Notes under the pieces: generated by a model
Databases searched by the model: none
What the model saw: the letters and a program-made list of their open reading frames with translations, nothing else
What the model was told of the DNA's origin: nothing
Shown here: piece after piece, positions 1,086 to 36,921 of the stretch
How positions within the stretch are numbered: the stretch's first letter is position 1
How the letters are laid out: each line of letters begins with the position of its first letter
Source of the DNA: a virus
Taxonomy: Duplodnaviria > Caudoviricetes
Direction: 5' to 3' (one strand)
DNA: 55,576 nucleotides
Virus record (IMG/VR): IMGVR_UViG_3300025601_000022
Location: 1 to 55,576 of that record
Made by a program: the position numbers and the translations under genes

Positions 1086-1090
1086 CTAAT

Positions 1091-1170
1091 CTTGTTGGTA
1101 GAGAACCCCCCTTCTCCCAACAACGAGTCCCGTCAGAGTTCTCCCCCGTCCTCTGGCGGGACTCACCTTT
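1091..1170 (+). ncRNA. 6C-like small RNA (two hairpins with C-rich loops)
   Basis: Stem 1 TTGTTGG..GAGAA/TTCTC-CCAACAA with loop CCCCCC. Stem 2 is 14 bp, GAGTCCCGTCAGAG/CTCTGGCGGGACTC, with loop TTCTCCCCCGTC, then CCTTT. It has its own promoter. Confidence 0.65.
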
Positions 1171-1229
1171 CTTAGTAGCACGAAAAAACAAACGACAAAA
1201 CGACAAAAACTAGAAACCAGGAGTAGACA

Positions 1230-6722: not shown

Positions 6723-6956
6723 ATGACAACAATCTTGAATCCACAAAGCAGTCGGATACGGTTATTCGTTTCCATGCAAGCACTGGACATGTATCTAAAG
6801 AGCAACGGGGCGATGGAACTCACTCGCAACGGATCACGAAACGCGGTTGCGATTATCGAGGAAGCAACCGGCAAGACATACAAGCGGTCAATGAAAGGCA
6901 AGCGCGAAGCACTAACGGACGTTAAGGACTTGCTGGGCGAGGGGATATCATCATGA
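6723..6956 (+). CDS. hypothetical protein (77 aa)
   Basis: AAAGGA RBS; promoter TTGCAT-16-TAAACT at 6667-6694; terminator hairpin at 6597-6627 upstream. Confidence 0.75.
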   Translation: MTTILNPQSSRIRLFVSMQALDMYLKSNGAMELTRNGSRNAVAIIEEATGKTYKRSMKGKREALTDVKDLLGEGISS

Positions 6957-8220: not shown

Positions 8221-8485
8221 ACTTGCATCATGGCTAATCGTGCTACTAAGAAGGACAGGGGGCGCACCTTGTACGGGGTAGGTGCGCCCGGAAACTTCGC
8301 GCTCAATACTCACGCGCCACGCTTTGCCGACAGGCGCACGAAACGAAACAGATCACGCGCCGAAATCGAGCGCAAAGCAGTTAATGAGTCTAAGTCTAGT
8401 TAGTAGCAGGCAGTCTTGCACTTGTCAGAGAGTACTGATACGCTGGATACATACCGCAAAGCGCGGTCAAGATAGGGGACATCAG

Positions 8486-8686
8486 ATGAGCATCACTCAA
8501 GCACAGAACACGGCGATTGTTTCCGCTGGTTTCACGGTAACTAATTTCAAGAGTCCTGCCATAATGTGCGCGACTCAGCCACTGGAAACATTTAGCGCAC
8601 CTGACTGGCACTCACTCGCTCTTTACGCGATAAAGTTTCAACTGTGCGAGTGCGAGAACCACCAACCAATTACATTGTGCTACTAA
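8486..8686 (+). CDS. hypothetical protein (66 aa)
   Basis: Promoter TTGCAC-17-TACGCT (8416-8444); RBS ATAGGGGACATC. Confidence 0.65.
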   Translation: MSITQAQNTAIVSAGFTVTNFKSPAIMCATQPLETFSAPDWHSLALYAIKFQLCECENHQPITLCY

Positions 8687-8700
8687 GAAAGAGGGACATC

Positions 8701-8946
8701 ATGAGCATAAAATTTTCTGAGACAGAATATGCAGTTTGCCTAGATTGCGTCATGTCTGCTGCTGGATACGACGCGCACGAATTAGGCTGTGAGCCAGAGC
8801 ATGAGCCACTGTCAAAGTTTGCAGGCGATACGACCACCACAATTATTCCGACAAACACGGATCTGGGTTTCTCGAATAAGGGCTGCCAAGGTTGCGAGGA
8901 CAAACTAGCAGGCAATCGCTACGCGATAACGCTGCTAGATATTTAA
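8701..8946 (+). CDS. small Zn-finger-like protein
   Basis: CLDC ... FSxxxCQGC...LAGxR; RBS GAGGGA. Confidence 0.7.
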   Translation: MSIKFSETEYAVCLDCVMSAAGYDAHELGCEPEHEPLSKFAGDTTTTIIPTNTDLGFSNKGCQGCEDKLAGNRYAITLLDI

Positions 8947-8974
8947 TCATGCTACTAAGAGAAGGGGAAACGAA

Positions 8975-9178
8975 ATGACTTGCCTACAAGACCACACGGA
9001 CAAATGTAAGGGAACAGTGGAATACCGCGAATCTCTGTCAGGTACGGGTGTAGAGATTGCAAGATGCGAGAATCACTGGGGCGAAGCACTAGAGCGCGAC
9101 GAGCAGATCAGACTACGTTATCCACGCAACGCGCCAAGTGACTTTGATCCTTCGTACGCTGGTGAGTCATGGGAGTGA
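8975..9178 (+). CDS. small Cys/His actinophage protein
   Basis: CxGxVEYR..LSGTG...RCxxH and a PSDFDPSYAGExW ending; AAGGGG RBS. Confidence 0.75.
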   Translation: MTCLQDHTDKCKGTVEYRESLSGTGVEIARCENHWGEALERDEQIRLRYPRNAPSDFDPSYAGESWE

Positions 9179-9255
9179 ACGAAATTATTAAGTAGCAGGA
9201 GAAAGTTGCGACCAGAAAAAATGTTTTTTCTGAAGTGCCAAGTTATTCGCCAGAC

Positions 9256-9284
9256 TTGCATAATCACTAAAGTTAATGTATTCT
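9256..9284 (+). promoter_or_regulatory. sigma-70/SigA promoter with the motif over the TSS
   Basis: TTGCAT-17-TATTCT followed by CTTAGTAGCAC. Confidence 0.75.
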
Positions 9285-9338
9285 CTTAGTAGCACAAAAT
9301 GATCAGCGAAATACGCGGATCGAAAGGGGCGGGGAGAT

Positions 9339-9548
9339 ATGCCAAAGCAAGGGACAGTCACAGTAGTTTCAGTCCGACCATTCTGTGACTTTGGGTGCGG
9401 ATCAGAAGCAAAGATTGACGGGCGCACGACTATGGGTGCGTGGGCGAACATGTGCCTAGATCATTGGATCTCATACGGCTGCGGGAAATTGGGCGTGGGG
9501 CACGGTCAAAAGTTAGCACTTGCCCCTAAGAATGAAGGGGGCGAGTGA
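9339..9548 (+). CDS. small Zn-binding phage protein
   Basis: CDFGC..DGRT..GAWANMC..H..G.G.LG.G.GQ, a widespread phage motif. Confidence 0.8.
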   Translation: MPKQGTVTVVSVRPFCDFGCGSEAKIDGRTTMGAWANMCLDHWISYGCGKLGVGHGQKLALAPKNEGGE

Positions 9549-9549
9549 T

Positions 9550-9888
9550 ATGGCATTCGACATGAGTCTGGACTACGCCAATGGGACATGTTTACAGGGG
9601 CGCATAGACATAACTAGAGCGCGTATCGAAGAGGTGTTTGGCGCACCTCTGTACGACAGCACCGACAATGACGAAAAAGTCATGACAGAGTGGGGCATCA
9701 TGTTTGATGATGGAACATGCGCGACTATCTATGACTGGAAACGCTACGAAATGGGCGCGGTTGGATTCCATGAAGTTTATGACTGGCACATAGGTGGAAC
9801 TAGCCATGATGCTATGGATAAGGTTACAGCGGTGCTACTAAAGAGAGGGGGTGAGCGAGATGACTGGAGTTACATTAACAATTCATGA
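9550..9888 (+). CDS. conserved phage protein (EW..ATIYDWK..WHIGG)
   Basis: Recognisable motif; AAGGGGG RBS. Confidence 0.8.
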   Translation: MAFDMSLDYANGTCLQGRIDITRARIEEVFGAPLYDSTDNDEKVMTEWGIMFDDGTCATIYDWKRYEMGAVGFHEVYDWHIGGTSHDAMDKVTAVLLKRGGERDDWSYINNS

Positions 9889-10024
9889 TCAGGCTAAGGG
9901 GATTGCTCCGACACAAACTTTCACGTTTGAGTGCCATAGTCCCAAAAGACTGGCAGAGATTGTTCAGGGCACGTTCGACAACATGCCAGAGAGTGCGCGG
10001 ATTACGCAGATTTATGTGGACTAA
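9860..10024 (+). CDS. small hypothetical protein (54 aa)
   Basis: GAGGGGGTGA RBS; MTGVTLTIHDQAKG... Confidence 0.55.
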   Translation: MTGVTLTIHDQAKGIAPTQTFTFECHSPKRLAEIVQGTFDNMPESARITQIYVD

Positions 10025-10148
10025 TTAGATCTACTTAGTAGCACGACAAACACGCGGAACCTAATTTAGGTTTAGGCTTGCACATGTCAGTCACTTAGTG
10101 TATTGTTCTACTTATACGGAAAGCCCGTACAAAAGTGAAGGGGTCAAG

Positions 10149-10541
10149 ATGACTATCAAAAAGACAAACAAGGGCACGGTTAGCGTTTCGCACCGTGGCG
10201 CAGTAGTGGCAGACAGCGCACTTATCGCTGCTATCGCTCAAGTGAGTAACATGCGTGCTACTAAGAGAGAGTGCACTAAGGCTGAGGACGCTGCCAAGGT
10301 TGCAATCAAAGTTGCCACGGGAGATCGTGCGCGCCTTATCCTCAATGTCGAGGGAGACATCATCTGTGAAGTCAAAGAAGTTGCAACAACTAGCGTGAGC
10401 GTAGATGGGTTTCTCGAAGCACTAGAGGGACTCTACCCCGACATCTGGGCAACGCTCATGGACAGAGATCCCAAAGCAGTTGAGACCGCTAAGACCGCTG
10501 CTACCAAGCATGACACCTACCTTAAGGTGTTGCCTAAGTAA
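10149..10541 (+). CDS. hypothetical protein (130 aa), paralog of 6197-6589
   Basis: Promoter TTGCAC-17-TATTGT (10078-10106), AAGGGG RBS and terminator hairpin at 10551-10577. Confidence 0.85.
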   Translation: MTIKKTNKGTVSVSHRGAVVADSALIAAIAQVSNMRATKRECTKAEDAAKVAIKVATGDRARLILNVEGDIICEVKEVATTSVSVDGFLEALEGLYPDIWATLMDRDPKAVETAKTAATKHDTYLKVLPK

Positions 10542-10897
10542 TTAGGACTCGGAGAGGGGGACACGCGCCCCCTCTCCACACCATAACAGTGTGCTACTAA
10601 GAGAGAGACATCATGACAACAGACAAAGCAAAGACGATTACAGGGGTAGTCCTATCCTTGGCCATAGTTGGGACGCTGATAGGCATGGTTATGTCCATGC
10701 AAAGTCACGGACTACTTTGGTAGCACGCGAAAAATAGAGGGGAGTCGCGGAGATTCGTGGCTCCCGTTTAGTTTCGAGGAACCAGAAAAAATGTTTTTTC
10801 TGACATCCCCGCCGCGCGGTCAGACTTGACAGATAATTATTTTCATGATGTAATTTATCTATCACTCCAAGGGGGGTGATCAATGAAAGGACACAGC

Positions 10898-11272
10898 ATG
10901 AGGGCATTGACAGTGAACGCAGAGACATTAGAAACAACTCTGATTGACCTGCCACGCGAGGGCGGGCTGGCACAATTACAGCGCGAGGTCGGCGGATATA
11001 TCGAAGCGGTACGGTTAGAAGAGTTTGATTTCTATCTCAATGAAGAGGGCAAGATGATTGGCCTACCTCTCAATGAAGTGGGCACGCTGCTTTGGGAGAG
11101 CGTATATGGTCAGACCGACGTGATCATGGGTAATATCGTTGTCGTAGGTAAGCCTGATGATGAGGGCTACGAAACAGAGTTAAGTTTAGAGAGCGCGCAA
11201 GAGATTCAGAATATCGCCATTACGTTGCAAGTCACGCGGTTTGGTAATGCGCTTATGGCGCGCGGTAACTAA
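10898..11272 (+). CDS. DUF3846-domain protein
   Basis: LQxxVGGYIE...YLNEEGK..GLPLN...IxGN motif; TTGACA promoter at 10826. Confidence 0.8.
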   Translation: MRALTVNAETLETTLIDLPREGGLAQLQREVGGYIEAVRLEEFDFYLNEEGKMIGLPLNEVGTLLWESVYGQTDVIMGNIVVVGKPDDEGYETELSLESAQEIQNIAITLQVTRFGNALMARGN

Positions 11273-11441
11273 TCCTAGTCAAGGGGAGAGAGTGCATGTC
11301 TGACATTCTCTCCCCCTACACTTTAGTAGCACGATTTATATGCTACTAAGAAAGACACGCAAAGATTGCTCTCAGTTTGCATATGTCAGTGCATTGTGAT
11401 ATTGTTACACCACAAGCACAAACGAGCGAGAGGGGCACAAA

Positions 11442-11624
11442 ATGAGGTTCATGCCAGATAGCGCGATACTCGGAACCATAGGCCACGCAAAGCGTCGCTC
11501 AGCAAAGAGTAAGGCTCGCGCACGTCGCGCATCACGCAACCAACGCCCATTGACAGGCGTGGACATCATTGGCGGTATCGCCCTCATGTTCGGATTCATA
11601 TTGTTCGTAGCACTATTCGTTTAA
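11442..11624 (+). CDS. small basic membrane protein
   Basis: Arg-rich N-terminus with a C-terminal TM helix; promoter TTGCAT-17-TATTGT (11377-11405); AGGGG RBS. Confidence 0.65.
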   Translation: MRFMPDSAILGTIGHAKRRSAKSKARARRASRNQRPLTGVDIIGGIALMFGFILFVALFV

Positions 11625-11650
11625 TCGTGCTACTAAGAGAAGGGGAGATC

Positions 11651-11767
11651 ATGACAACACAGACACAGACACTTTGCAAGGATTGCAATATGTATCCTGC
11701 GATTCAGATTCAGCCGGAATACACAGAGCGTTGCCGGCACTGCCACAATAAATTGTGGAAGAAATAA
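11651..11767 (+). CDS. 38-aa Zn-finger peptide
   Basis: AAGGGGAG RBS; CKDC...CRHC. Confidence 0.55.
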   Translation: MTTQTQTLCKDCNMYPAIQIQPEYTERCRHCHNKLWKK

Positions 11768-12246
11768 TCATGCTACTAAGAGGGAGCACGATTGCGTTTA
11801 AGTGCGTAGAGTGTTTGCGGACGTGGACAGTATTTGATGACGCTCAAGAATGGGCGTATGGTCACGATTGCGAAGGGGGGTGATCGTGGAGATAGCCCAA
11901 GCGGTACTTGCGGGGATTCTAATGGGATTCGGCGCGGGGATCATATTCATTCGACGATGCTACTAAGAGAGAGAGACAGGCAAAATGTGTGTTTGACTTG
12001 CAATTGTCAGATGACTAATGTAGACTAAAGACATGCCAACACGGGCACAGAGATAGGGGACATCATGGCACCGGCTCAAGATTACGTGGAGACCTGCGGA
12101 TACTGCACCAATGAGTATCTTTACTCAAACCTACGCACCAATAATGAGGGGGACGCAATTTGCCCCCCCTGTCGGAAAGAGGGGGAGTGAGCGAGATGAT
12201 TTATGTTCCCATTATTCATGCTACTAAGAGAGAGAGTGACAAAGAG

Positions 12247-12519
12247 ATGACAACACCATTGATATTTATCACAGATCCTGGACATGGTTGGTTAGAGGTA
12301 GACTTAGCAGAATTCCCAGAAGCATTTGATTGTGGGACAGGATACGGATACATAGACGAAGCGCGCGGAAAGATATACCTCGAAGAGGATACAGAGCTTT
12401 GGGCATTCTTGAAGACTCACCCAGAGATTAACGACCGCATTACAGAGAAGGTGTGGGCAGACAGAGACGCACCATTGCGAAACCTGCCAAGGAACGAGGC
12501 CAGACTTGTGAGGGCGTAG
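12247..12519 (+). CDS. conserved phage protein (DPGHGWL...YLEED)
   Basis: Recognisable motif family. Confidence 0.8.
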   Translation: MTTPLIFITDPGHGWLEVDLAEFPEAFDCGTGYGYIDEARGKIYLEEDTELWAFLKTHPEINDRITEKVWADRDAPLRNLPRNEARLVRA

Positions 12520-12721
12520 GTATTAGTAGCGAGGGGGCGTGGCGAGAGTCGCGCCCCTAAGTTGCCGCCAGCTTAGAAAAAATGTTTTTTCTGAGAGCCA
12601 CGATACGCGGTCAGATTTGCAATTAAATATATTGTAAAGTAAAGTAAGGTAAAGTTAAATAGACAGCCACGCAGGTGCTCGCCACCTACGCTACTAAGAG
12701 ATAGAGGGAATACTAATAATA

Positions 12722-13297
12722 ATGAAAACTAAACGAAAGTCTTATCTACCAGTAGAGGTAGCAGACGCCTTTAATAAGATCTCAGGTGAACCACAATCTT
12801 TGCGAGACTCCTACATGCTACGTCTAGTAATGAATGGATGGACGCATAACTCTGTTGCAGTCGCTGCTGGAGATCTCTCACGTGAGCGAGTACGTCAGTG
12901 CGTGCATCCAAGTGTTTCTGACACTAATCCTTATTGGGACTATGTAACTACTCATGGCATTGACTCTCTCCCAGTCCCAGACTTACCAGATCGCATTGAA
13001 AAGCCTAGGGCTGCCCCAAGACCTATGCCTAGTGACGAAACTCTGGCACGACTAAGAGAACTAAAGCCACTCGCTGCGGAGGTACGATTTAATCACAGCC
13101 ACAACAGAGCAGAGGCTGAAGAGTATGTCGGGTTAATTTGGCACGCGCATACCGTAGAAGGCGTAAGTGTGTACCGTTTAGGAAAGTTGCTAGACGTGCT
13201 GCCTTGCGGTATCGAGAGTCGTCTAGTGCGTTATGGGTACAAGAAAACCAATGGTGGATCTGAAGCCTTTAGTCCGATTAAGTATCGGAAAGTCTAA
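12722..13297 (+). CDS. dual helix-turn-helix DNA-binding protein
   Basis: N-terminal HTH (GWTHNSVAVAAGDLSRERVRQ, sigma region-4-like), Pro-rich linker, second HTH (GVSVYRLGKLLDV). Promoter TTGCAA-17-TAAAGT at 12617-12645. Confidence 0.75.
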   Translation: MKTKRKSYLPVEVADAFNKISGEPQSLRDSYMLRLVMNGWTHNSVAVAAGDLSRERVRQCVHPSVSDTNPYWDYVTTHGIDSLPVPDLPDRIEKPRAAPRPMPSDETLARLRELKPLAAEVRFNHSHNRAEAEEYVGLIWHAHTVEGVSVYRLGKLLDVLPCGIESRLVRYGYKKTNGGSEAFSPIKYRKV

Positions 13298-13350
13298 GAT
13301 CATATTGTGTAGTGAAGTGGAGTGCTACTAAGTAGTAGCACGACACTCAC

Positions 13351-13423
13351 GCCCTCGTAGTTCAACGGACAGAATAACCGGCTTCTACCCGGTAGGTTGG
13401 GGGTTCGATTCCCTCCGAGGGCA
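13351..13423 (+). tRNA. tRNA-Arg (anticodon UCU, reads AGA)
   Basis: Acceptor stem GCCCTCG/CGAGGGC, D-arm GTTC/GAAT, anticodon arm ACCGG-CTTCTAC-CCGGT, T-loop TTCGATT. CCA is not encoded. Confidence 0.95.
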
Positions 13424-13426
13424 CAC

Positions 13427-13455
13427 TTGACAAACAAAGTAATGTCATATATTAT
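13427..13455 (+). promoter_or_regulatory. sigma-70/SigA promoter
   Basis: TTGACA-17-TATTAT. Confidence 0.8.
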
Positions 13456-13659
13456 TGTACTAACAACACAACAACTAAGGAGTGAGTCACATGATTTAAG
13501 TAAAGGAGTGAGGGTGGGGATACTCCAAAACCGCCAGCCAAAGGGACATAATCCCCTAGGCACAGAACACAGATAGGGGACAATAAGTTCACGGTAGTGG
13601 GAGGTGCAGAAGAACCCTCCCTCTACTGCTTGCTACTAACTACAAGAAGGGGTAAGACA

Positions 13660-13947
13660 ATGAGACTTCAAATGAACAGCGCAGAAGAGTTAGGACTCAT
13701 GCTCAGTCAAGATGAGGTAAGCGTACTTGCTACGGCATTAGGTGGGCTGCTAAGCACACTAAACCATGAGATCGAAGAGATCGGAGATACCGCAAAGGAA
13801 GATCAAAGTAATCTTATGATGATGCTCTCCATGAAAATGGATACGGAGATAATGTTTCTCAGTCTTTGGACGGCTCTAGGATTGGGCGAGGAAAAACTTG
13901 CCATGCTACTAAAGACAACACAGATAGGTGAGGGGGAGAGTGAGTGA
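13660..13947 (+). CDS. hypothetical protein
   Basis: AAGGGG RBS; helical, acidic sequence. Confidence 0.7.
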   Translation: MRLQMNSAEELGLMLSQDEVSVLATALGGLLSTLNHEIEEIGDTAKEDQSNLMMMLSMKMDTEIMFLSLWTALGLGEEKLAMLLKTTQIGEGESE

Positions 13948-13948
13948 A

Positions 13949-14116
13949 ATGAGAAAGTTTAATAAAGAAAATTATGGTGAAGACTTCTACGGTGTAATAA
14001 CCCACTGTGAGGTGAGGGTTAATTGGATCAACTGCCCTCTCCATAACAAAACAGGTTGCAAGGGAACGGTTTGTGCGATTTGTAGAGTAACCGACTTCGA
14101 TTGTGAAGGTGAGTGA
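13949..14116 (+). CDS. small Cys-rich protein
   Basis: Several Cys/His pairs; GGGGGAG upstream. Confidence 0.55.
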   Translation: MRKFNKENYGEDFYGVITHCEVRVNWINCPLHNKTGCKGTVCAICRVTDFDCEGE

Positions 14117-14117
14117 A

Positions 14118-14339
14118 ATGGTAGATCGCATAGAAAGTACGAAAACGGTCATGTTTGTAGGTGACTACTTTGCGCTGACAACTACGGTCATACTAGATGA
14201 GGGGCTACGTTACGAGGACGAAGAGGACGAGGACTTTGCCATAAGGATTGCCACCGTATTCCTATCAGAGCATTACGGGTTTGATGACATAGATGAAAAG
14301 TCCAATCAGATAGGTATCGTGGACGAGGACATGCCATAG
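14118..14339 (+). CDS. acidic hypothetical protein
   Basis: AAGGTGAG RBS; ORF track. Confidence 0.7.
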   Translation: MVDRIESTKTVMFVGDYFALTTTVILDEGLRYEDEEDEDFAIRIATVFLSEHYGFDDIDEKSNQIGIVDEDMP

Positions 14340-14357
14340 ATGCGGTACACTTTGACT

Positions 14358-14463
14358 TCTAAGTAGTAGCATGTAATCCCCTTTCCGTGCTCCTTAGATG
14401 TGGGAACCCCTTACCCACGAAGGCTGGCCTCTGGATACTTCCCAGAGGTCAGCCGTCTTTATT
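14358..14463 (+). ncRNA. three-hairpin small RNA with CCCCUU loops
   Basis: -10 TACACT at 14346. Hairpins: TCTAAG..AGCATG/CGTGCT..CTTAGA (loop TAATCCCCTTTC), GTGGG/CCCAC (loop AACCCCTTA), and a 13-bp GGCTGGCCTCTGG/CCAGAGGTCAGCC followed by a T-rich tail. Confidence 0.55.
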
Positions 14464-14525
14464 GTGGATGTGGAGCTGAGAAAAAACGTTTTTTCTATGA
14501 TACAGATTGGATGTACGCTATTCAC

Positions 14526-14786
14526 ATGTCTAACATCGAGATCGTTCAGAGTTCCTTTCACAGTAATGGTCACGCTGCCCCCTTCTACGCGGCAATAGTC
14601 GATGACCCAGACACAGGAGAAACAAAGATCGTCATTATGTTCGATGAGCCTGAATACACAGCCGTACTATCGTTGGATGCGCTACTTAATGACGAGGACA
14701 TTTCTCATGACAAGCATAATTCGAGAGGAGATATCTACGATTCTAAGTTGAGAGATGTTTTGTGGTATCCGGAGTCCGGGTCATAG
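14526..14786 (+). CDS. hypothetical protein, probably leaderless
   Basis: TACGCT -10 lies 6 nt before the ATG; FHxNG..AAPFY motif. Confidence 0.7.
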   Translation: MSNIEIVQSSFHSNGHAAPFYAAIVDDPDTGETKIVIMFDEPEYTAVLSLDALLNDEDISHDKHNSRGDIYDSKLRDVLWYPESGS

Positions 14787-14787
14787 G

Positions 14788-15345
14788 GTGACAACCATTA
14801 TTGGAGTTCAAGGATCTTCATGGGCTGTTATGGGCGCTGACTCACAGGTGAGTGAGGAGTCAAAAAAATTTCGATTGCCATCATCGTTTAGTAAGTTGAT
14901 TTCTAATGGTGAGTTTCTCATAGGGACAGCAGGAGATGTTCGCGCCGTCAATATTCTTACCCATACATTCGTGCCACCGATTGTAGGGAAGATCCCAGAT
15001 GAGGGGCTGGATAAGTTTATGGTATCCCGTTTTGTTCCTGCTCTCAAAGTTTGCTTTGATAATAATTTCTATGGCAAAGACAACGAGCATGACTCAGTAT
15101 TTATTGTTGCAGTTCGCGGGGTGTTATATGAAGTAGGGGGAGGCTATGAATGTATTCGAGATGATACGGGGTTATATTCGGTAGGTAGTGGATCCTCATA
15201 CGCATTAGGCGCGTTGCATGTCTTAAACAAGAAGCCCAGGACATTAAGCGGTGCTAAGGTTATGATCAAAGAGGCATTGCAAGCGGCAAGCAGATACGAT
15301 ACAGGTACATCGGATCCAGTTACTATTATCGTACAAAGATATTAG
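14788..15345 (+). CDS. proteasome beta/HslV-like Ntn-hydrolase protease
   Basis: GTG start gives (M)TTIIG with a catalytic N-terminal Thr; ADSQ, conserved K, GTAG and SVGSGSSYALGAL. Confidence 0.9.
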   Translation: MTTIIGVQGSSWAVMGADSQVSEESKKFRLPSSFSKLISNGEFLIGTAGDVRAVNILTHTFVPPIVGKIPDEGLDKFMVSRFVPALKVCFDNNFYGKDNEHDSVFIVAVRGVLYEVGGGYECIRDDTGLYSVGSGSSYALGALHVLNKKPRTLSGAKVMIKEALQAASRYDTGTSDPVTIIVQRY

Positions 15346-15357
15346 TAGCAGTCTCGG

Positions 15358-15480
15358 TTACTTGCCGTTGCGTTTGGTTGGCCTGAGGCAAACAATCTCC
15401 AAGAATATGCTCAGGATCGCTGCGCCTAGCGCAAAGGCTCCCAAACCTATTCCTACGGTTATTGCGTAGTCCCATGTCAT
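15358..15480 (-). CDS. 40-aa single-TM peptide
   Basis: MTWDYAITVGIGLGAFALGAAILSIFLEIVCLRPTKRNGK on the opposite strand. Confidence 0.4.
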   Translation of the reverse strand: MTWDYAITVGIGLGAFALGAAILSIFLEIVCLRPTKRNGK

Positions 15481-15589
15481 GTGACCTATCATGACAGGAG
15501 TATATGACACTTTAAGCGTGGTGCGCTAGGTATTATCGTTTGGATAGTGTAGGATAGTGCTAACACAACGACAACACATAGGGGACACC

Positions 15590-15742
15590 ATGAAAGATGT
15601 ACGATTGACACTCAGAGGCAAGATTGTATTGGCTATGGCATTGCTAGGGCTAGTGAGTGCTGCTATCTACGCCGTTACACCAGAGGAATGCAGGTCGGGC
15701 GAGAGTCGTCAAAGTGCCTACTGTGCGGAATATCTACGCTAG
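15590..15742 (+). CDS. small membrane/secreted protein
   Basis: ATAGGGGAC RBS; RLTxRG followed by a TM segment and two Cys. Confidence 0.65.
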   Translation: MKDVRLTLRGKIVLAMALLGLVSAAIYAVTPEECRSGESRQSAYCAEYLR

Positions 15743-15751
15743 GATGAGATC

Positions 15752-15904
15752 ATGATGAAGCGTATAGTTTGGGCTGCCGTAGTTTCGGCATTGCTCGCCG
15801 TTGTATCTGTCGTCCTTGCGGTGCTAGGACATGAGTCAGAGTCTATTGCATTTGGTATGGCTGCCGTAGTGTCTGCAATTCTCTCCAATAGGGAACGCGT
15901 ATAA
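15752..15904 (+). CDS. small two-TM membrane protein
   Basis: MMKRIVWAAVVSALLAVVSVV...; hydrophobic. Confidence 0.5.
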   Translation: MMKRIVWAAVVSALLAVVSVVLAVLGHESESIAFGMAAVVSAILSNRERV

Positions 15905-15920
15905 CGCTTATACTAATCTC

Positions 15921-16331
15921 ATGACTGATGCCCCGACACCTAATGAAAGCCCTAAGCCTGCCCCTACGCCCTTAAATGTAGTGCCAGCTAGTAAGAGTGA
16001 TGGTGAGAGTGTTGTCGCTCCTAAGCCCGTTCCTGCCCCGCCTAAGCCCGTTGCGGTAGTGTCCTCGATTGGATCCGTGGATGTTGTAGTGGGATCACTT
16101 GTATATCAAGCACGCGCCCTTCGAAGTATTAGCGTGGCAGTCGTGCAAGATAGATTGACAGAGTTAGGCTACGGGGATGCGCGTGGAGATCTCCGTGGAT
16201 GGCTATCTGATGGGACAGTAAAGGCTCTGTCAGCGTTTCAGAGTGCATCAGGACTGTTGGTAACAGGTATAGCCGATATGGACACCGTTAAGGCTCTGCT
16301 CAAAGATACAGGGGCAACCGTAACCGATTAG
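15921..16331 (+). CDS. peptidoglycan-binding domain protein (PG_binding_1-like), leaderless
   Basis: VQxRLxxLGY...T.KALSAFQ..SGL.VTGIAD..T; TATACT 6 nt before the ATG; Pro-rich N-terminus. Confidence 0.8.
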   Translation: MTDAPTPNESPKPAPTPLNVVPASKSDGESVVAPKPVPAPPKPVAVVSSIGSVDVVVGSLVYQARALRSISVAVVQDRLTELGYGDARGDLRGWLSDGTVKALSAFQSASGLLVTGIADMDTVKALLKDTGATVTD

Positions 16332-16352
16332 TATTAGTAGCACTATAAGTGA

Positions 16353-16382
16353 AAGCCCCCCATGTTTGAGATGAGGGGCTTT
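16353..16382. terminator. bidirectional terminator at the convergence point
   Basis: AAAGCCCC...GGGGCTTT hairpin between convergent genes. Confidence 0.75.
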
Positions 16383-16395
16383 CCTAGTTGCTGAT

Positions 16396-16518
16396 TTATT
16401 CGACCAGATCCGCGTAGCAGATGAAGCACACTAGGTGCTTGCCAAAGTATCGGCTACTTGCTGACCCACATAGGGTGCATGTCTCGGTCTCGGTCTCGGT
16501 CTTGATCTCGGTTGTCAT
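16396..16518 (-). CDS. 40-aa Zn-finger peptide (cassette 5)
   Basis: CTLC...CFIC; own promoter TTGACA-17-TACACT (16587-16559); AAGGGG RBS. Confidence 0.65.
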   Translation of the reverse strand: MTTEIKTETETETCTLCGSASSRYFGKHLVCFICYADLVE

Positions 16519-16643
16519 GTCTTGCCCCTTGTCTTGCACCCCCTTGGTGCATGGCTTGAGTGTAGCGTAGCCCTAATCTGATGTCAAGTTAGGGGATACA
16601 TGAGTGAGCCCCCCACCTTGCGGTGAGGGGCTTCACTTGATGT

Positions 16644-16880
16644 CTAGGAGGTCTCACACTCCCACTCCAACGTCAAGCCCTCCATTAGTTGCATACCCTC
16701 TGAGACCCCGTTACACCAGCGGATAGCGGGGTAACTCTTGTCAAAGTGCTTCCACATGAATGGCTGACCCCAGTTGTTCCCGTACCCCTTACGCTCACCG
16801 TTAGCATCTATCTCCCATGCGTATCGTCCACTATTCGCAACGGCCTCTTCCCATGTAACGGGCTTAAGATTTTGACTCAT
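16644..16880 (-). CDS. hypothetical protein (78 aa, cassette 4)
   Basis: Promoter TTGCAT-17-TACTGT (16952-16924); ATAGGGGA RBS. Confidence 0.7.
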   Translation of the reverse strand: MSQNLKPVTWEEAVANSGRYAWEIDANGERKGYGNNWGQPFMWKHFDKSYPAIRWCNGVSEGMQLMEGLTLEWECETS

Positions 16881-16984
16881 TTGATATTCCCCTATCTGTG
16901 CGCCCCGAGTTGGGCATAGCCTGACAGTACAGCAAAGTGCAGGGTAATGCAATACCTACGCGGAATTAGTTTCGGCGTGTCTAC

Positions 16985-17091
16985 TCGCGCTCACGAGCTC
17001 ACGCCTACGCGCTCACGCGCTCACGCCTACGCGCTCACGCGCTCACGCGCTCACGCTCACGCCTACGCGCCTACGCGCCTACGGCTCACGC
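16985..17091. repeat. tandem repeat of CGCTCACG / CGCCTACG units
   Basis: About 13 imperfect 6-8 bp units, intergenic. Confidence 0.9.
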
Positions 17092-17135
17092 AAAAGCCCC
17101 CCACCCGTGAGGGTGAGGGGCGCTAGGCAAGAGGA

Positions 17136-17630
17136 CTACACGCGCCCCCCACATACGGGGCCAATACCGGCAGCCACGCTAACGGGATTAGTTAGCATGG
17201 CAGCGCATACGCAACAAAAACCGAACTCCACGCCCCACGCCTTAGCCTCGGCCAATGTCATACGATCCTCGGCGGTGAGTGTGCGAATAGCACCGGCAGC
17301 GTAAACAAATTGAGCGTTACCTTCAGCCAACATATCGAGACGCTTCGCGTATAGGTTGCCAGACTCGCGTGACTTGACCACACGGAATATGTCCCCGTTC
17401 ACGCGGTACATACCCACTTCGAGAGGCGCGGTCGGCGCGACAACGATCTTAGGCGCTTGCAATAACAGATTAATGCTACGCGAGGCCAGATCCTTATCTA
17501 GTGTTCCAGACTCAATGCGCGACAGTAGTGCTACGCGAATTTCGGCCAACTCGGTGCGTGTGTTGAGTAGGTGCGTAAGGTATGAAACTTGACGCTCTGT
17601 GGCGGGTGAGATTGTCGCGGTCATGGTCAT
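17136..17630 (-). CDS. DUF6011-domain protein (cassette 3)
   Basis: C-terminal CCVC..LTNPxS..GIGPVC; N-terminal ATxRQ..YL; promoter TTGACA-17-AATACT (17700-17672). Confidence 0.8.
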   Translation of the reverse strand: MTMTATISPATERQVSYLTHLLNTRTELAEIRVALLSRIESGTLDKDLASRSINLLLQAPKIVVAPTAPLEVGMYRVNGDIFRVVKSRESGNLYAKRLDMLAEGNAQFVYAAGAIRTLTAEDRMTLAEAKAWGVEFGFCCVCAAMLTNPVSVAAGIGPVCGGRV

Positions 17631-17794
17631 GATGTCCCCTTTTTTTGTGGAGCCCCTTGCTCCATGTCTTAAGTATTACATAGTACTGAAAGTATGTCAA
17701 GTCCAAACGGATAGTTATTTATTTCAGCGTGTCGCGCGCTTGCGGATATGAAAGAGCCCCCCACCTTGCGGTAGGGGGCTCTCAAAGTCTTGAC

Positions 17795-17989
17795 CTAAAC
17801 CGCGTGGCGCGTATAGGTTCGACGTTCGGGAGTGTCCCAGACGATATAGTCATGATCAAGGTGTCCACAATTGGAGCACCACGCTAGGCCACCCTTGATG
17901 ACACCGATTGAAACTATGCGCTCGAATGACTCTGCGCGTTCGGCAACATCACAGTGGAGCAATACGGTTGCTCTGATTTTCTTTGACAT
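17795..17989 (-). CDS. small Cys/His protein (cassette 2)
   Basis: Promoter TTGACA-17-AATACT (18065-18037); GAGGGGA RBS. Confidence 0.7.
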   Translation of the reverse strand: MSKKIRATVLLHCDVAERAESFERIVSIGVIKGGLAWCSNCGHLDHDYIVWDTPERRTYTRHAV

Positions 17990-18115
17990 GGGATCCCCTC
18001 TCAGGAGATGTATGGAGCCCCTTGCTCCATGTCTTAAGTATTACATAGTGCGGTTATATTGTCAAGTGGAAGAGCCCCCCACCTTGCGGTAGGGGGCTCT
18101 GTTGGAGATTAGGGG

Positions 18116-18367
18116 TTATCTCCCCTCATCTAAGAATGTAATGTGCGGGTATGTGAGTGCGGTAGTTGGAGTTGGATCGCTCGTTACTTGGAGATATACC
18201 GCGCTGACCTTGGCTTGATCACATGTTGCGAGTAGCGCGGTGAGTTTGCGGTCTCCGTAGGTTGCGTTGAACTCACCAGACCAGGTGAACCCATCTGTGA
18301 AAGTAATGACTACACCAGAGATGCGGTCTCCTAATAAAGCCTTGCGATCTGCTAATACGGTATTCAT
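18116..18367 (-). CDS. hypothetical protein (83 aa, cassette 1)
   Basis: Promoter TTGACA-17-TATTCT (18436-18408); ATAGGGGA RBS. Confidence 0.7.
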   Translation of the reverse strand: MNTVLADRKALLGDRISGVVITFTDGFTWSGEFNATYGDRKLTALLATCDQAKVSAVYLQVTSDPTPTTALTYPHITFLDEGR

Positions 18368-18417
18368 GATATCCCCTATCTTTTGCCGCCCCTTGCGACA
18401 TGACATAAGAATATACT

Positions 18418-18694: not shown

Positions 18695-19160
18695 CCCCCC
18701 ACCCCCTAGTAGTAGGTAGTAGGTAGTAGGTAGTAGGCCAGATGGGTCAGATGTAGGTATGTATGTATGTATGTATGTATGTATGTATGTATGTATGTAT
18801 GTCAGATGTATGTATGTTTGATGTATATCTGTCAGATGTATGTATGTTTGATGTATATACATAATTTGATGTCTGTCAGTTTGTTTGTCAATTTGTCAAT
18901 GTCTATCTGTCAATGTCTATCTGTCAATGTCTGTCAGTTTGTTTGTCAGTTTGTTTGTCAGTTTGTTTGATGTCTGTCAATGTCTGTCAGTTTGTTTGAT
19001 GTCTGTCAGTTTGATGTCTGTCAGTTTGATGTCTCTCATTTGATTGTCAGATGATTGTCAGATGATTGTCTGTCAGTTTGTTTGTCTGTCAGTTTGTTTG
19101 ATGTCTGTCAATCTGTTAGTGCTCATTTGTTTGCCTGCCAATTTGCCTGTCAATTTGTGA
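18695..19160. repeat. low-complexity array: C-run, (AGTAGGT)n, (ATGT)n and about 20 co-oriented TGTCA(A/G) units
   Basis: Directly visible; non-coding; strongly T/G-biased on the + strand. Confidence 0.95.
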
Positions 19161-23313: not shown

Positions 23314-24357
23314 ATGACAACACAATCGTCAAAGAACTGGGTACAAGTAAAGGTAGTGCAAGAATATTTGCCTTCCGAGACTTTGGTGTCTCCCGATACG
23401 ATTGTTGCTGCTGCAAGCGAGCCTGCTCCTAAAGAAGATCAGATCAAGGGCTCAGACACAAATAAAAAAGACTCTGCTAGTGGCGAAGGAAAGATTTCTT
23501 TTGGAGCTCGTACCGAGACTGCTATCAAAAACAAAGTAGAAGAACACAATAAAAAGGCTCCTAAGGGACGTAAAGCTACTCTTTCTATGCTTAAAGCGGT
23601 TTATCGCAGGGGGGCTGGAGCATTCTCTACCAGTCACCGACCAGGAATGTCCAGAGACCAGTGGGCTATGGCGCGCGTTAACGCCTATTTAAAGCTTCTT
23701 AAGTCTGGTAAGCCATCAAACTCTGCGTACACAACTGATAACGATCTTTTACCTGCATCACACCCCAAGAGCAGCAAGAAGTCCAATTCAGCGCTTACCG
23801 CCAGCGGATTGGTACCTGAAGAGCGTGATTTAGCAGATGCAATTCTTTCTGTAGTAGAAAAGCACGGAAAGTTTAACGAAGACGCTACAGGAGTCTGGGC
23901 CGGATATACTCCTGCCGATAAAAATACAGATGCAGGCATCGGGGTTATTTGCGCCAACTGCGTGTTTTATCAAGGTGGAGCAGATTGCGCAATCATTAGT
24001 CTCCCTGTCGAGCCCAATGGGAAGTGCCGACTAGCGATTCTACCTGACGGAGTCGTAACTGCAAAAAAGAATACTCAGGACATAGAGCTAGAACTAGTTT
24101 CTTTTACAGCCGAAAATGAACTTGCTCTTAACGATTTAAAAGAAAATACATTTTCTACTGCTCAAGGTGCAATTACGTATCTTACAGAACTTTCCGGTCT
24201 CGGATACGAAGCCGAGTATGCAATAAAAGCTTCCTGGATGCGAGCAGTAAAAGAAAGTCAAGATCCATATTTACGTGCACGAGAGCTGGCAATTACTACG
24301 TATAATAGTCAAGATGCAGATTTGCTCCCTAAGAAAACAGAAAGTGCGGAACTGTGA
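23314..24357 (+). CDS. multidomain head-associated protein with a HiPIP-like Cys cluster
   Basis: LKAVYRRGAGAFSTSHRPG..QWAMARVNA domain; CANCxFY..C..VxxNGxC at 23950-24027. Confidence 0.75.
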   Translation: MTTQSSKNWVQVKVVQEYLPSETLVSPDTIVAAASEPAPKEDQIKGSDTNKKDSASGEGKISFGARTETAIKNKVEEHNKKAPKGRKATLSMLKAVYRRGAGAFSTSHRPGMSRDQWAMARVNAYLKLLKSGKPSNSAYTTDNDLLPASHPKSSKKSNSALTASGLVPEERDLADAILSVVEKHGKFNEDATGVWAGYTPADKNTDAGIGVICANCVFYQGGADCAIISLPVEPNGKCRLAILPDGVVTAKKNTQDIELELVSFTAENELALNDLKENTFSTAQGAITYLTELSGLGYEAEYAIKASWMRAVKESQDPYLRARELAITTYNSQDADLLPKKTESAEL

Positions 24358-27300
24358 TTAACAACCTCACTAACAAGCAGCTAGCAAAGGTTACAGCCTC
24401 TGCTATCACTCTTGTTGCTAGTGCCAACAAAGAAACTCAAATATATCGGCGCGTTAGCCCGAGATCTGCAGTAGAGATTCTTGCTCGGTCACTAGAGAAA
24501 ACTGCCAAACTTCCGTTCTCTATCCGTGAGTATCTCGCCATACGCGATGTATCTGACTTTGTGCTTGTCTCTCAGAAGAACAAAACAAACCTTGCAAAAC
24601 GTCGTAACACAGATCTTCTTCCAATATGCCACCCGTCATCTAGCAAGAAGCACGCAATGACGGCTAGCGCTTTGCGTATTGAGCGTGGACGTTGGATCGC
24701 AGCTGACCCTAGAATTACTGACACAGAAGCTCAAGCGATGATTGCATCTGCATTTAGCTCTGCCCCGTTCTCTCCTGAAGAGTCTTACTACATTACGCGC
24801 CTTACCGCCCTCCCACAGGGTTCCGTCCCTCTTACGGCAATTATCGCTGCCTTTGGTGATGGAAACTCTACGGCGGCTCGTTCTGCTCGAGCTCGTATGC
24901 AGCGTCGTGACCGCAAAGGTCGCTTTGCGTGGATGGGTGGGGGCATGTCCACTATTGTTCGTCGTAGAGACGGATCTACTCGTAAACTTAGCGGTAGAAC
25001 AATTGCTCAGGGTGTTGGAGCGGATGACACTTTCGATCTAGAAACTCCTGACGGTCGATTGCTCAGAGTTCCTGCCGGAAGCTCTGAAGCAAGTAAGGCT
25101 TACCTGCGGGGAGAAGACTCTCCTGACGGATTCTCGGTTGCTGAAGTTGGTGCGATTGATAGAAAAGATGCAGTAGATGAAGATCAAATTCTTGAGGTAG
25201 AGTTCCCTAATCTTTTCCGTAAGGACGGTTCTTACACAGGAGCTGGTACTAAATACACCGACGATGCCTATGACGTTATTAAATTAGATCCAAATAATGA
25301 TGACGACTTTGAAGCACTCCCAGACGAACTTGTTCAAAGAAAGCCTGACGGCTCCTTCCCTATTGATTTAGATAAGCCTGTATTTATTCTAAATAGAGAT
25401 ACTGGTCAGCGTGGCGGTACCGATCTAGGCCAGTTCCAAAACTGGGCAGACACTCAGGGCATGATTAATGTAGATGAAATTGTTCGAGACAAAGAAGAAG
25501 GCCGCGAGTCTGACGCTATTGCTGTTCTCGATCAAGAAACATACAACAGACTGTACGACACCGTAGGTGACAGGGATCCTTATGAGGTCCTCCAAGAAAT
25601 TCAAAAAGAGTCTTCGGGTCAAGAAGACAGGGCCCCCCTTAACGATAAGAGTCAAGCTTTTAATTTTGTTGACCCAACGGGTGCAAATTTTGTAGATGAT
25701 GATTTTACATACGAGCCTAAAGGTCGTACTGATCAAGACTCTACCGACTATACCGATGATCCTTCAGTACTGGCTAACTCTTTTTCTGAAGAAGAATTAA
25801 CAAGCGCACTAAAAGAAGCCGTTACTCCTGCAGAGCCCACAGAAAATTCAGAAGACCTAGACGCCCTTGACTTTGGGCCTCCAGGAGATGGAGATCTCTC
25901 CTTTAATGACGGGGATGAAAAAGTTCCCGCTCAAGCGTTGTATGACGCGCTAAAAGAACAAGGCACTGACGCGCAAAATAAACTTGCAGAGATTTATGAC
26001 GAACTACCTGAATCAAGCACTACGAATGTTTCTGACCTAGAAAAAGCTCGCGCTGAAGGACCAAAAGCTACCCTAGTAGAAGAAGTTGCTCGTACTCCTA
26101 AGGCTGTGCTCCCCACACCAGAAGAAGTTCCTGAAGAAGAAGCACCCTTGGCTTCAAAATATGAAAATCTTCCTCCACTCTTTGATGGACTTTCTGATGA
26201 TGAAAAAGCAGAAATTCTTGACGGCAAAGACTACAGTAAGTATCTTCCAAAGAATCCAGACAAAGATGTTCCAGAAGGATTCCAGCCAGTATTTCCAGAA
26301 CCTTTTGAAAATGTTGATGAAAACCCAGACTTTGACCCTATAAATCTTGCTAACACGAATGACGCGGTCGATCTTAAAGAGGCTCTTGCTGAAGGACTTA
26401 GTCCTGACGCAGAACGGCCAGGTTATGGGACTGTAGGACGTACTGATGAAGACGGTGAAGAATCTTTTACTACTGCTCCTCTCGCTGCTATTCGAGATGC
26501 TCTTCAAATGCAGGGCGAAGATGCAGATAAGCTTATTGATGATGTCTACAAAAAAGATGAGGACACAAGCTCTTCTGATGCTGCAGATGCCCTAGACGAT
26601 CTACTTGGAGATCTTGATGACGCAGACGCAGACACTCAAGACCTGTCAACTGAACCAACCACTAGGACAGTAACTGCTCCTAACGGGAAAGACTACACAG
26701 TCAGCACTCGTAAAAATGAAGATGGAACTGTTGACCTAGTTCTTTCAGACTCTGAAGGCAGAGAATTTGTTGAAAGCTCGGGAGATGAAGAAGAGCTACA
26801 AGAACTAAACGGTCAAGCAGAGCAGTACGCGCAGTCCATTGAAGACGGCGACGAAGCCGGGCAAGCATTAACTGAGATAATTGACGATGAAGATATCTCA
26901 GACGTTCCAGAAGATGTCACTCCAGAAGATCAAGTAGATGATGTTGTTGATGATGTAGTAGAGCCAGAAAAAACTGAAAGGGAGAAGGCTCTTGAAAATC
27001 CTCCTGGAGATATTCCTGCCGTAGGATCTCCAACAGGTGAACCGTCAGTTCAAGGAACCATAAAACTTCGTGCTGGTAAGTTGAGAGTTGGAGACTGGGT
27101 ACTTGGTGCGGATAATAAATGGCATAAAATTGTTTCTAGTAAAAAATTTCCTTCTTTTAGGGATAAAGAAATAGCACGGGAAAATAGAGTACCGGCAAAA
27201 AAATCTGTAACTCTGCTTACATTAGACGATGGAACAACAATTTCTAGCGGGTTGGGCGACACTAGAACGGAGGAATTTTATGACGTATCTACCCCTCCTC

Positions 27301-36176: not shown

Positions 36177-36920
36177 ATGGCTGATGTAAAAAAAGACTTT
36201 AAAGCGGAACGAGCAGGCTCTATGGCACTGCATGTACTTGCAAAAGATGATCAACCTCTTGAATTGATTCTAGATTGGCATGGAGTCGGGCAATTTTTTA
36301 GAATAGATGGTGGTTGGTCTTTAGAACCTAAGGACTCAGATAATTTAGATGATTCTAAAATTGTTTACATTAATCCTGAAAGATCAATAGAATTTATTGA
36401 TAAATGGGATACTGAAGACTCAGAGTTAGACACTGACTACGTTGCGTACACTGCCACCAGAGAGCAATTAGTCACAATGTACCCAGAATATGCTAACGCC
36501 TCAGAGGTTGAAAATGCTGTTGTAGCGGCTGGAAACTTTACTTGCCCCCCTGCAACTCAGGATATAATGATTAATCTGGAAAACAGAAATAAGGCCATTA
36601 AAAGTGCTGGTTATGGTCCTCTTAATCCAGATAGGCCAAATGTTGATTTCTGGGAGGAAAAAGCCGAACTCTGGAGCACTACGGTTGATGAAGCTAAAAG
36701 CTCTAGATGTGGTAACTGCGCAGTATTTATTCGTACTCCCGAGATGCTCGACTGTCTTGACTCAGGTCTGACGCAGGAAGGCAGCAAGGAAGCTTGGGAC
36801 GCTATAGATGCAGGAACTCTTGGATATTGCGAAGCGTTTGACTTTAAATGTGCAGCAGGAAGAACATGTGTTGCCTGGGTCGCTGGCGGTCCAGTCACCG
36901 GAAAAGACAAGGATAACTAA
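36177..36920 (+). CDS. head-associated protein with a Cys-rich C-terminal domain
   Basis: After VVAAG: CPPATQD..N..YGP.NP...CGNC..F...GYC..F.FKCA..RTC..W..GGP. Confidence 0.8.
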   Translation: MADVKKDFKAERAGSMALHVLAKDDQPLELILDWHGVGQFFRIDGGWSLEPKDSDNLDDSKIVYINPERSIEFIDKWDTEDSELDTDYVAYTATREQLVTMYPEYANASEVENAVVAAGNFTCPPATQDIMINLENRNKAIKSAGYGPLNPDRPNVDFWEEKAELWSTTVDEAKSSRCGNCAVFIRTPEMLDCLDSGLTQEGSKEAWDAIDAGTLGYCEAFDFKCAAGRTCVAWVAGGPVTGKDKDN

Positions 36921-36921
36921 T

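Follow-up and report, generated by a model that had tools for sequence, protein, structure and literature searches.

A conserved three-hairpin RNA with C-rich loops and the G-run Shine-Dalgarno sites of an uncultured actinophage

The window analysed here is the whole 55,576-base stretch of IMG/VR record IMGVR_UViG_3300025601_000022, which constitutes an entire contig of a phage genome and is a fragment of a large siphovirus-type actinophage, uncultured. In a gap of 186 nucleotides (nt) between a gene for a protein of 73 amino acids (aa) and one for a protein of 86 aa, the window carries an element that folds into three hairpins in a row on the plus strand, two of them with loops containing CCCCUU, and that we take to be the gene of a small RNA (sRNA) of about 105 nt. 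One question then is whether the exposed loops of such an RNA are linked to the ribosome-binding sites (RBSs) of the genes around it, many of which have a Shine-Dalgarno (SD) sequence with a run of G.

The organisation of the window is simple. Small plus-strand genes, together with one tRNA-Arg, an AAA ATPase and an HslV/proteasome-like gene, occupy 1-16.4 kilobases (kb); a minus-strand cassette follows at 16.4-18.9 kb, and virion genes fill 19-55.6 kb, with PHROG matches to portal, major head protein, head-tail adaptor, major tail protein and tape measure. The gene order agrees with that at 25-50 kb in Actinomycetia phage DSL-LC01 (OQ999401, 129 kb), the major capsid protein of which is 76% identical to that of the window; the next nearest capsid relatives are those of Microbacterium, Arthrobacter and Gordonia phages.

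The RNA element and its family

A sequence-only reading had described three consecutive hairpins in the gap, two with CCCCTT in the loop and the last with a terminator-like stem, and inspection of the letters, folding and a terminator scan all see the same arrangement (Table 1). The plus strand has a minimum free energy of -51 kcal/mol (z = -4.06), which none of 200 shuffled sequences equalled, and the minus strand of the element folds less well (z = -2.82). Nine of the 13 pairs of the hairpin 3 stem (14422-14454) are GC, and with its loop of 7 and the U-rich GTCTTTATTG that follows, this hairpin qualifies as an intrinsic (Rho-independent) terminator; it is the sole terminator-like site that the scan gave on the plus strand within 13300-15400, and the T-run of its tail is interrupted.

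Table 1. Features of the locus and related features elsewhere in the window (positions count from the first base of the window)
Feature	Positions	Strand	Description	Basis
Second candidate C-loop RNA ('6C-like RNA')	1089-1176	+	two hairpins, loops CCCCCC and UUCUCCCCCGUC; z = -7.51	
RGGGG small-gene block, plus-strand starts	8470-18385	+	8486, 8975, 9339, 9550, 9860, 10149, 10883, 11442, 11651, 12065, 12196, 13660, 13940, 15590	
RGGGG small-gene block, minus-strand starts	8470-18385	-	16518, 16880, 17630, 17989, 18367	
Upstream gene	14118-14339	+	73 aa, no family match, stop at 14339	protein family searches
-10-like promoter hexamer	14346-14351	+	TACACT (TAnnnT), 7 nt 5' of first paired base of hairpin 1	sequence
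Predicted sRNA	14357-14465	+	about 105 nt; full match to the three-hairpin C-loop family models	R1 and R2 covariance models
Hairpin 1	14358-14398	+	outer stem CUAAG/CUUAG, inner stem AGCAUG/CGUGCU, loop UAAUCCCCUUUC (14374-14385)	fold, covariation
Hairpin 2	14400-14418	+	stem GUGGG/CCCAC, loop AACCCCUUA (14405-14413)	fold, covariation
Hairpin 3 and tail	14422-14464	+	13-base-pair stem, loop AUACUUC, tail GUCUUUAUUG	fold, terminator scan, covariation
-10-like box of downstream gene	14497-14502	+	TATGAT, 23 nt before ATG 14526	box present in L004/L006, L085-L087 and L089-L092
Downstream conserved gene	14526-14786	+	86 aa, no Pfam match	start 14526 set by alignment with relatives

The loop motif is itself unevenly distributed. 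The window has 33 copies of CCCCTT where 20.95 are expected, and none of 100 shuffles reached 33. Only five of the plus-strand copies fall within 1-16.4 kb; two of these five are the loops of hairpins 1 and 2, each of which has CCCCUU, and one, at 1108, is a loop of the second candidate C-loop RNA (Table 1). Most minus-strand copies are AAGGGG sites 5' of plus-strand genes at 8.9-13.7 kb; likewise, most plus-strand copies at 16.5-18.4 kb are AAGGGG sites 5' of minus-strand genes.

Since nucleotide searches of a phage collection with 13900-15400 gave no match, relatives were gathered through the flanking proteins, with the family of the downstream 86-aa gene as the anchor; this gave 88 related loci (L numbers below), 80 on viral contigs and 8 on metagenome contigs. 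The closest diverged relative, L004, in which the flanking proteins are 70-77% identical, has the same three-hairpin layout in the same place built from different stems, hairpin 2 for example being GGGAGG/CCUCCC with the loop UUCCCCUUU kept. Hairpins 1 and 2 did not emerge from MAFFT alignments of the RNA, and because the set could not be aligned structurally in this way a covariance model was built. The first model, R1, was made from six sequences of one distant clade in which RNAalifold recovered all three hairpins, the window copy being excluded, and it matched 14357-14465 of the window over its full length (model positions 1-114 of 114; 22.6 bits, E = 0.0076 in 442,709 bases searched) as well as 44 further places. 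From the R1 matches a second model, R2, was built, which scores the window copy, a member of its training set, at 57.3 bits; of 68 related contig loci, 51 have the element by this model at E <= 0.01. Ten of the loci matched by R2 were absent from both training sets (L004, L092, L089, L085, L086, L042, L081, L082, L079 and L091), the matches being weaker in L079 (E 0.041) and L091 (E 0.11). Searched with the same model, the capsid-gene regions of 80 related contigs (1,289,213 bases) had no match at E <= 0.01, and the complete 129-kb genome of DSL-LC01 had none at E <= 10. A third weak R2 match in the window, at 18062-18136 on the minus strand (18.4 bits), was rejected as a family member after folding, which gave an ordinary terminator and a GAGGGG/CCCCU hairpin; the intergenic stretch at 18040-18150 on that strand thus has a terminator after a small hairpin formed by cis pairing of GAGGGG with CCCCU.

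In the R2 alignment, with 52 distinct rows, all 31 pairs have changes on both sides, and the first alignment is similar. This applies to the 11 pairs of helices 1 and 2 (hairpin 1), to the 6 pairs of helix 3 (hairpin 2, 98% paired) and to the 14 pairs of helices 4 and 5 (hairpin 3) alike. Over the two alignments paired cells amount to 95.5-95.7%, against 60-64% in shuffles (0 of 500 reach the observed value) and 37-50% with the partners slid by 1-3 columns (in the R2 alignment 95.7%, 60.4% and 40-48%), although alignments by covariance model are fitted to the structure, so that the paired percentages are inflated and count for less than they appear to. The low values of the slid controls, and stems that are wholly different among members and visible as such by eye, make the structure of the family, as a matter of comparative sequence, secure. 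The loops are more conserved than the stems that carry them. Seventeen columns hold at least 1.2 bits, and six of these are C, C and U loop positions of hairpins 1 and 2, while two more are C columns in the hairpin 3 loop; the C, C and U columns of the hairpin 1 loop reach 1.5-1.85 bits. CCCUU stands in hairpin 1 or hairpin 2 of 43 of the 50 distinct copies, and the C-runs of the loops in relatives range from 3 to 7 C.

On this comparative footing the element is a conserved structured RNA gene, a member of a family spread across many related uncultured actinophages. The family is well supported, with some 50 copies, full covariation, a promoter and a terminator, and it is absent from Rfam 15; a search of the literature found neither a published description of it nor an account of a phage-borne 6C RNA.

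Whether this RNA is a gene of its own or part of a neighbour's transcript is then decided largely by its flanks. Of 48 distinct copies, 43 have a TAnnnT hexamer (TACACT in the window; TAGAAT, TAAACT, TAAAGT or TAAGAT elsewhere in the family) that ends 4-13 nt 5' of hairpin 1; in each of 25 background windows just as wide, such a hexamer turns up in 1-5 of the 48. A near-consensus σ70-like promoter, TTGACA-17-TATTAT with 11 of 12 matches, lies further upstream at 13427-13455 on the plus strand, directly after the tRNA-Arg, and could also read into the RNA. Such a transcript, ending at the terminator at 14422-14454, would suit the idea of a purely cis-acting 3' end, in which the hairpins only terminate or stabilise the mRNA of the upstream operon (13660-14339) and the C-rich loops are incidental, and hairpin 3 alone would account for much of the fold z-score. 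We nevertheless consider this highly improbable, given the conserved -10-like box directly 5' of hairpin 1, the loops that are better conserved than the stems, and a unit that retains its form though its upstream neighbours vary among loci. That the RNA is instead a leader or attenuator of the downstream conserved gene may seem natural where, as in the window and in roughly one relative out of two, it lies 45-90 nt 5' of that gene with a terminator at its end; it becomes scarcely credible in view of the many loci (e.g. L027, L010, L013, L078) in which some 380-1250 nt separate the two, and of L027 in particular, where the sequence just 5' of the conserved gene looks like the end of a different coding sequence. 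Moreover, the downstream gene seems to have its own promoter, and the RNA would then not be its leader, because a separate TCTATGAT box is kept after the terminator in the closest relatives, about 23-30 nt 5' of the next gene's start. The element is therefore best read, from the arrangement of these signals, as a unit of about 105 nt that runs from a promoter, with a host-type -10 box, to a terminator, neither a leader nor only a 3' untranslated region, and the proposal of a discrete sRNA gene with its own -10-like box, covarying hairpins, conserved C-rich loops and a terminator is supported.

Two further sequences were seen in these flanks. A GGGGTAAAAA(G)T box, perhaps a promoter element of the phage, recurs in related loci (e.g. 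L010, L013, L026, L027, L046) about 25-40 nt 5' of the -10 box of the sRNA, and in several loci it also stands 5' of the conserved downstream gene. The palindrome GAAAAAACGTTTTTTC (14481-14496, plus strand) separates the terminator of the sRNA from the TATGAT box; the near-identical relative L003/L005 has not retained it, which makes a role as an operator improbable.

Shine-Dalgarno classes in the window and its relatives

The genes of the window fall into distinct classes according to the sequence of their SD sites. In a set of 70 rough greedy calls of open reading frames (ORFs), the starts of which were picked partly by pairing to an assumed anti-SD motif, RGGGG sites precede 19 of the 29 genes at 8.7-18.9 kb and none of the 26 virion genes at 19-55.6 kb (Fisher p = 7e-8), and they precede only 1 of the 15 genes at 1-8.7 kb (p = 3e-4). 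The virion genes have GGAG or GAGG in 11 cases of 26 and AGGA or AAGG in a further 7, in agreement with the AGGAG, AAGGA and GGAGG types that the sequence-only reading had assigned to late genes. All 14 starts which that reading had named as AGGGG-type do have such a site 6-10 nt upstream, and sites of the same type not on its list were found at 6953, 9860, 10883, 12065, 12196 and 13940. Tabulation of RBS class against gene class across the window thus bears out the split, and the RGGGG class makes up one block of the non-virion genes and leaves others out.

A similar division is found in the relatives, for which the gene calls are greedy ORF sets with starts again picked in part by pairing to the assumed anti-SD. 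GGGG falls in the SD window of 177 of 806 genes in RNA-bearing loci and of 15 of 1047 genes in the relatives' virion-gene loci (Fisher p = 4e-51, the loci being non-independent), where GGAG or GAGG prevail (392 of 1047). In one contig in which both regions are present, GGGG sites number 4 of 19 around the RNA (L017) and 0 of 14 around the capsid gene (L161). Syntenic loci without a match to the RNA model have 7 of 239, and in DSL-LC01, likewise without a match, such sites precede 2 of the 59 genes of the small-gene region and 4 of the 164 genes in all.

The frequency of such sites is also graded with the loops of the RNA. Sorted by the longest loop C-run, GGGG sites number 134 of 442 genes where the run is of at least four C, 42 of 242 where it is of three, 1 of 95 where it is of two or fewer and 3 of 195 where there is no RNA; clades with CCC loops favour AGGGA and those with CCCC or longer favour AGGGG. 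The top SD 5-mers together spell GAAAGGGG(A), the complement of the hairpin 1 loop. Loop and SD sequences match better within a phage than between phages, both for 6-mers (0.291 own-phage against 0.228 cross-phage, permutation p = 0.0004) and for 7-mers (0.167 against 0.106, permutation p < 0.0002). We conclude from these site counts that the SD split is real, conserved between gene modules, and that it tracks both the presence of the RNA and the length of its loop C-runs. A split as sharp as this between modules of one genome matters for gene calling and start prediction in these phages, whatever its origin.

Proposed pairing, its precedents and its rivals

Base pairing between C-rich loops and G-rich sites at or near RBSs is an established mode of regulation, used by multi-hairpin RNAs with unpaired C-runs such as sX13 of Xanthomonas, CcsR1/ar14 of alpha-proteobacteria and RsaE/RoxS of Firmicutes. 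These are chromosomal host-regulatory sRNAs of unrelated bacteria, and the likeness is one of design; the sub-threshold matches of the L089 copy (sX13 29.9 bits, ar14 28.4, CcsR1 18.3) are all far below the gathering scores. In actinobacteria the corresponding RNA is 6C, the loops of which bind the panD RBS AGGGGGG and repress translation without a chaperone (Mai et al. 2019, PMC6486639). The window RNA and 6C are alike in being about 100 nt long with several hairpins, C-rich apical loops and a GC-rich final stem. They differ in that the loops of the window RNA have four C and then a conserved UU(U)C in place of six C, that its C-rich loops are in hairpins 1 and 2 while the loop of its terminator is not C-rich, and that it is encoded by a phage, with the phage's own genes as suggested targets.

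The Rfam searches reflect this mixture of likeness and difference. A search of the whole window, run both at the gathering score and at E <= 10, gave no family that fits the element, none fits the distant member L068, and the window copy has no match to the 6C family (RF01066) even at E <= 10 in a search of 221 nt (14300-14520); the consensus trait of 6C, two hairpins with loops of about six C, is not that of the window copy, which has CCCC twice and AUACUUC in the terminator loop. Copies L089 and L092 nevertheless score 40.7 and 37.3 bits on 6C, short of the gathering score of 47; in these two the terminator loop is C-rich as well, so that hairpins 2 and 3 align to the pair of hairpins of 6C. 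The family may accordingly be described as 6C-like in design and perhaps, on these alignments, distantly related, with the window copy not a 6C member. For the second candidate C-loop RNA the 6C score is 29.5 bits (1090-1168), and its R1 and R2 matches are weak; it lies between genes at 556-1050 and 1230-1373, and a reverse copy of the CTACTAA type, described below, follows it.

In this context, the RNA would act in trans as 6C does, its exposed loops (core CCCUU, CCCCUU here) pairing with G-run SDs (RGGGG, often GAAAGGGG or AAGGGGA) and thereby covering the SDs of the phage's own small non-virion genes, such that ribosome binding is occluded. The unpaired loops are complementary to the RBSs of the RGGGG genes, as would be expected of a trans-acting sRNA that occludes SDs. 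The core of the 16S anti-SD is CCUCC, and a G in place of the A of the canonical GGAG could form only a wobble pair with its U while it would form a G-C pair with the loop; for this reason mRNAs with G-runs are predicted to prefer the sRNA over the ribosome, and virion mRNAs with GGAG or GAGG are not. The calculated energies go in the same direction, the median of the loop-SD duplex being -13.05 kcal/mol for 20 RGGGG genes against -6.55 for 50 other genes, while the same sites paired with an assumed 16S anti-SD tail give -9.35 for RGGGG genes and -7.3 for the others. The likely outcome would be a damping or shut-off of the G-run class of genes as the stable RNA accumulates. That the loops do pair with the phage's own G-run SDs, as a 6C-like base-pairing sRNA that occludes such sites, is a tentative reading of this complementarity, to which we give slightly less than an even chance of being right.

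A stronger form of the same reading would make the RNA a mimic of the anti-SD. The hairpin 1 loop in many members resembles the assumed 16S tail with one U changed to C (for example CCCCCUUUCU-type loops), and a two-letter 'RBS code' could follow, in which one abundant sRNA shuts down the small non-virion genes of the block and leaves virion mRNAs open to translation, and in which a single A-to-G change in an SD (GGAG to GGGG) would shift an mRNA from ribosome-preferred to sRNA-preferred pairing. Taken as a whole this is unlikely, but as a hypothesis it is the best-supported mechanism. There is a precedent in phage T4, where RegB cleaves GGAG SDs and so inactivates early phage mRNAs (PMC1702504). 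The likeness lies in the inactivation of a temporal class of phage mRNAs by recognition of the SD sequence; the difference is that RegB is a protein nuclease that cuts, whereas the window RNA would occlude by pairing, and at non-canonical G-runs. If the code were true, the RNA would be the counterpart of RegB, one that a large group of lake actinophages has kept and that some lineages have lost along with their G-run SDs. The mechanism had earlier been put forward as an undescribed RNA-based switch, a claim that stands as to the RNA, for which, as for a phage-borne 6C, no description was found, and overstates the novelty of the mechanism, the class of which is known from 6C on panD (PMC6486639) and from RegB (PMC1702504). 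In our analysis, then, 6C would be the precedent for the pairing and RegB that for SD-specific early shut-off, the RNA family itself being new. Should the pairing be real, a 6C-type RNA of a phage would control a whole class of the phage's own genes through RBS sequence, and temporal control would be exerted post-transcriptionally by an RNA where T4 uses a nuclease.

Several points weigh against this account of own-gene control. All of the regulation is deduced from complementarity, and a match of 5-6 nt to a purine-rich SD is easily obtained; gene starts, in the window and in the relatives alike, were chosen partly by pairing to the assumed anti-SD. Cofolding, which takes account of internal structure, separates the two classes only partly, with overlapping distributions (medians -7.55 and -3.4): ddG is -4 or lower in 16 of 20 RGGGG genes and also in 16 of 50 others, and two virion-gene starts score -11.2 and -9.8. 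On a tree of a neighbouring protein with 58 loci the traits change only 2-4 times, leaving 2-4 independent pairs, with which a sign test is unable to reach significance; this count left out 21 loci never searched with the model, loci with less than 1500 nt upstream and no match, proteins shorter than 60 aa and loci with fewer than 8 genes. Nor is the correspondence of loop and SD without breaches, clade B1 having loops of C5-6 yet few G4 sites (1 of 9, 1 of 8 and 1 of 16) and L013, L022 and L042 having CCC loops yet G4 sites at 6 of 16 to 6 of 20 genes. As for timing, the sequence-only reading had equated the AGGGG class with early genes, which is right in that the class forms a block at 8.7-18.9 kb and is absent from virion genes, and wrong in that 14 of the 15 non-virion genes at 1-8.7 kb lack RGGGG, so that the class is not equal to 'early genes'. 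The promoter of the sRNA looks host-type and sits among the supposed targets, and a delayed action of the RNA is for that reason not evident from its setting. A true early-to-late switch seems to us decidedly unlikely.

The loops could, in principle, be directed elsewhere. As a mimic of 6C, the RNA could bind G-rich leaders of the host's 6C regulon, for example those of replication and division genes, in the service of takeover, the match to the phage's own SDs being then secondary or tolerated. The 6C-like architecture would fit such a role, and the 6C matches of the syntenic L089 and L092 copies extend over the full model length, with the second window RNA also matching, if more weakly; overexpression of 6C halts growth and represses dnaB and panD via the C-rich loops (PMC6486639), and extra plasmid-borne copies of 6C suggest horizontal spread (PMC9569102). 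What such a role leaves unexplained is why an excess of G-run SDs in the small genes of the phage itself goes only with an RNA with C-run loops, and why loop length and SD type change together, and we regard it as unlikely, though host-directed and own-gene roles could coexist. Sequence-conserved loops on covarying stems would fit recognition by a protein equally well, and two to three repeats of the loop motif per RNA would suit a protein-binding or decoy RNA, with the CCCUU loops as sites for a phage or host protein or as a sponge for another RNA; yet no candidate protein is linked to the locus, the flanking genes being without a family match, and the graded correspondence of loop C-run and SD G-run is not predicted, which makes this very unlikely. 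Clades that are in effect natural 'loop mutants', and relatives that have no RNA, both exist.

Further features of the window

Where 7.4 copies of the 7-mer CTACTAA are expected, the window has 52, a total that none of 100 shuffles came to. Of these copies 45 lie within 1-16.4 kb, on both strands, whereas the minus-strand cassette has none and the virion module few; examples are at 8680, 8952, 11630, 13325 and 13906 on the plus strand and at 2319, 11323, 15342 and 16334 on the minus strand. Its extended consensus is about TAATCGTGCTACTAAGAGA. Many plus-strand copies stand directly 5' of an RBS, and many reverse copies just past gene ends, some of them giving stop codons; hairpin 1 of the sRNA also starts with a near reverse copy. 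The motif may serve as a promoter-like box, as a binding site for a protein or in RNA processing.

Two long ORFs lie within the virion module on the plus strand. The first, of 3770 aa (24354-35666; about 3290 aa in its DSL-LC01 counterpart), had suggested an N4-like phage with hairpin promoters, an idea that was dropped because the ORF has UvrD-helicase domains, alongside a DUF7178 match, and because the virion genes are siphovirus-like with a tape measure. The second, of 1634 aa (36808-41712), follows it and has PHROG matches to portal protein, head maturation protease and virion structural protein. Two genes 3' of the sRNA is the HslV/proteasome-like Ntn-hydrolase gene (14755-15345, plus strand; Pfam Proteasome, 31.8 bits), the product of which is 42% identical to the 'ATP-dependent protease subunit' of DSL-LC01. 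The tRNA-Arg(TCT) gene at 13351-13424 on the plus strand is adjoined by a perfect palindrome, GTGCTACTAAGTAGTAGCAC (region 13322-13455), and at the point where the minus-strand cassette and the virion genes diverge there is a (TATG)n tandem repeat of about 14 units (18751-18806, plus strand), which gave a spurious match to mir-297.

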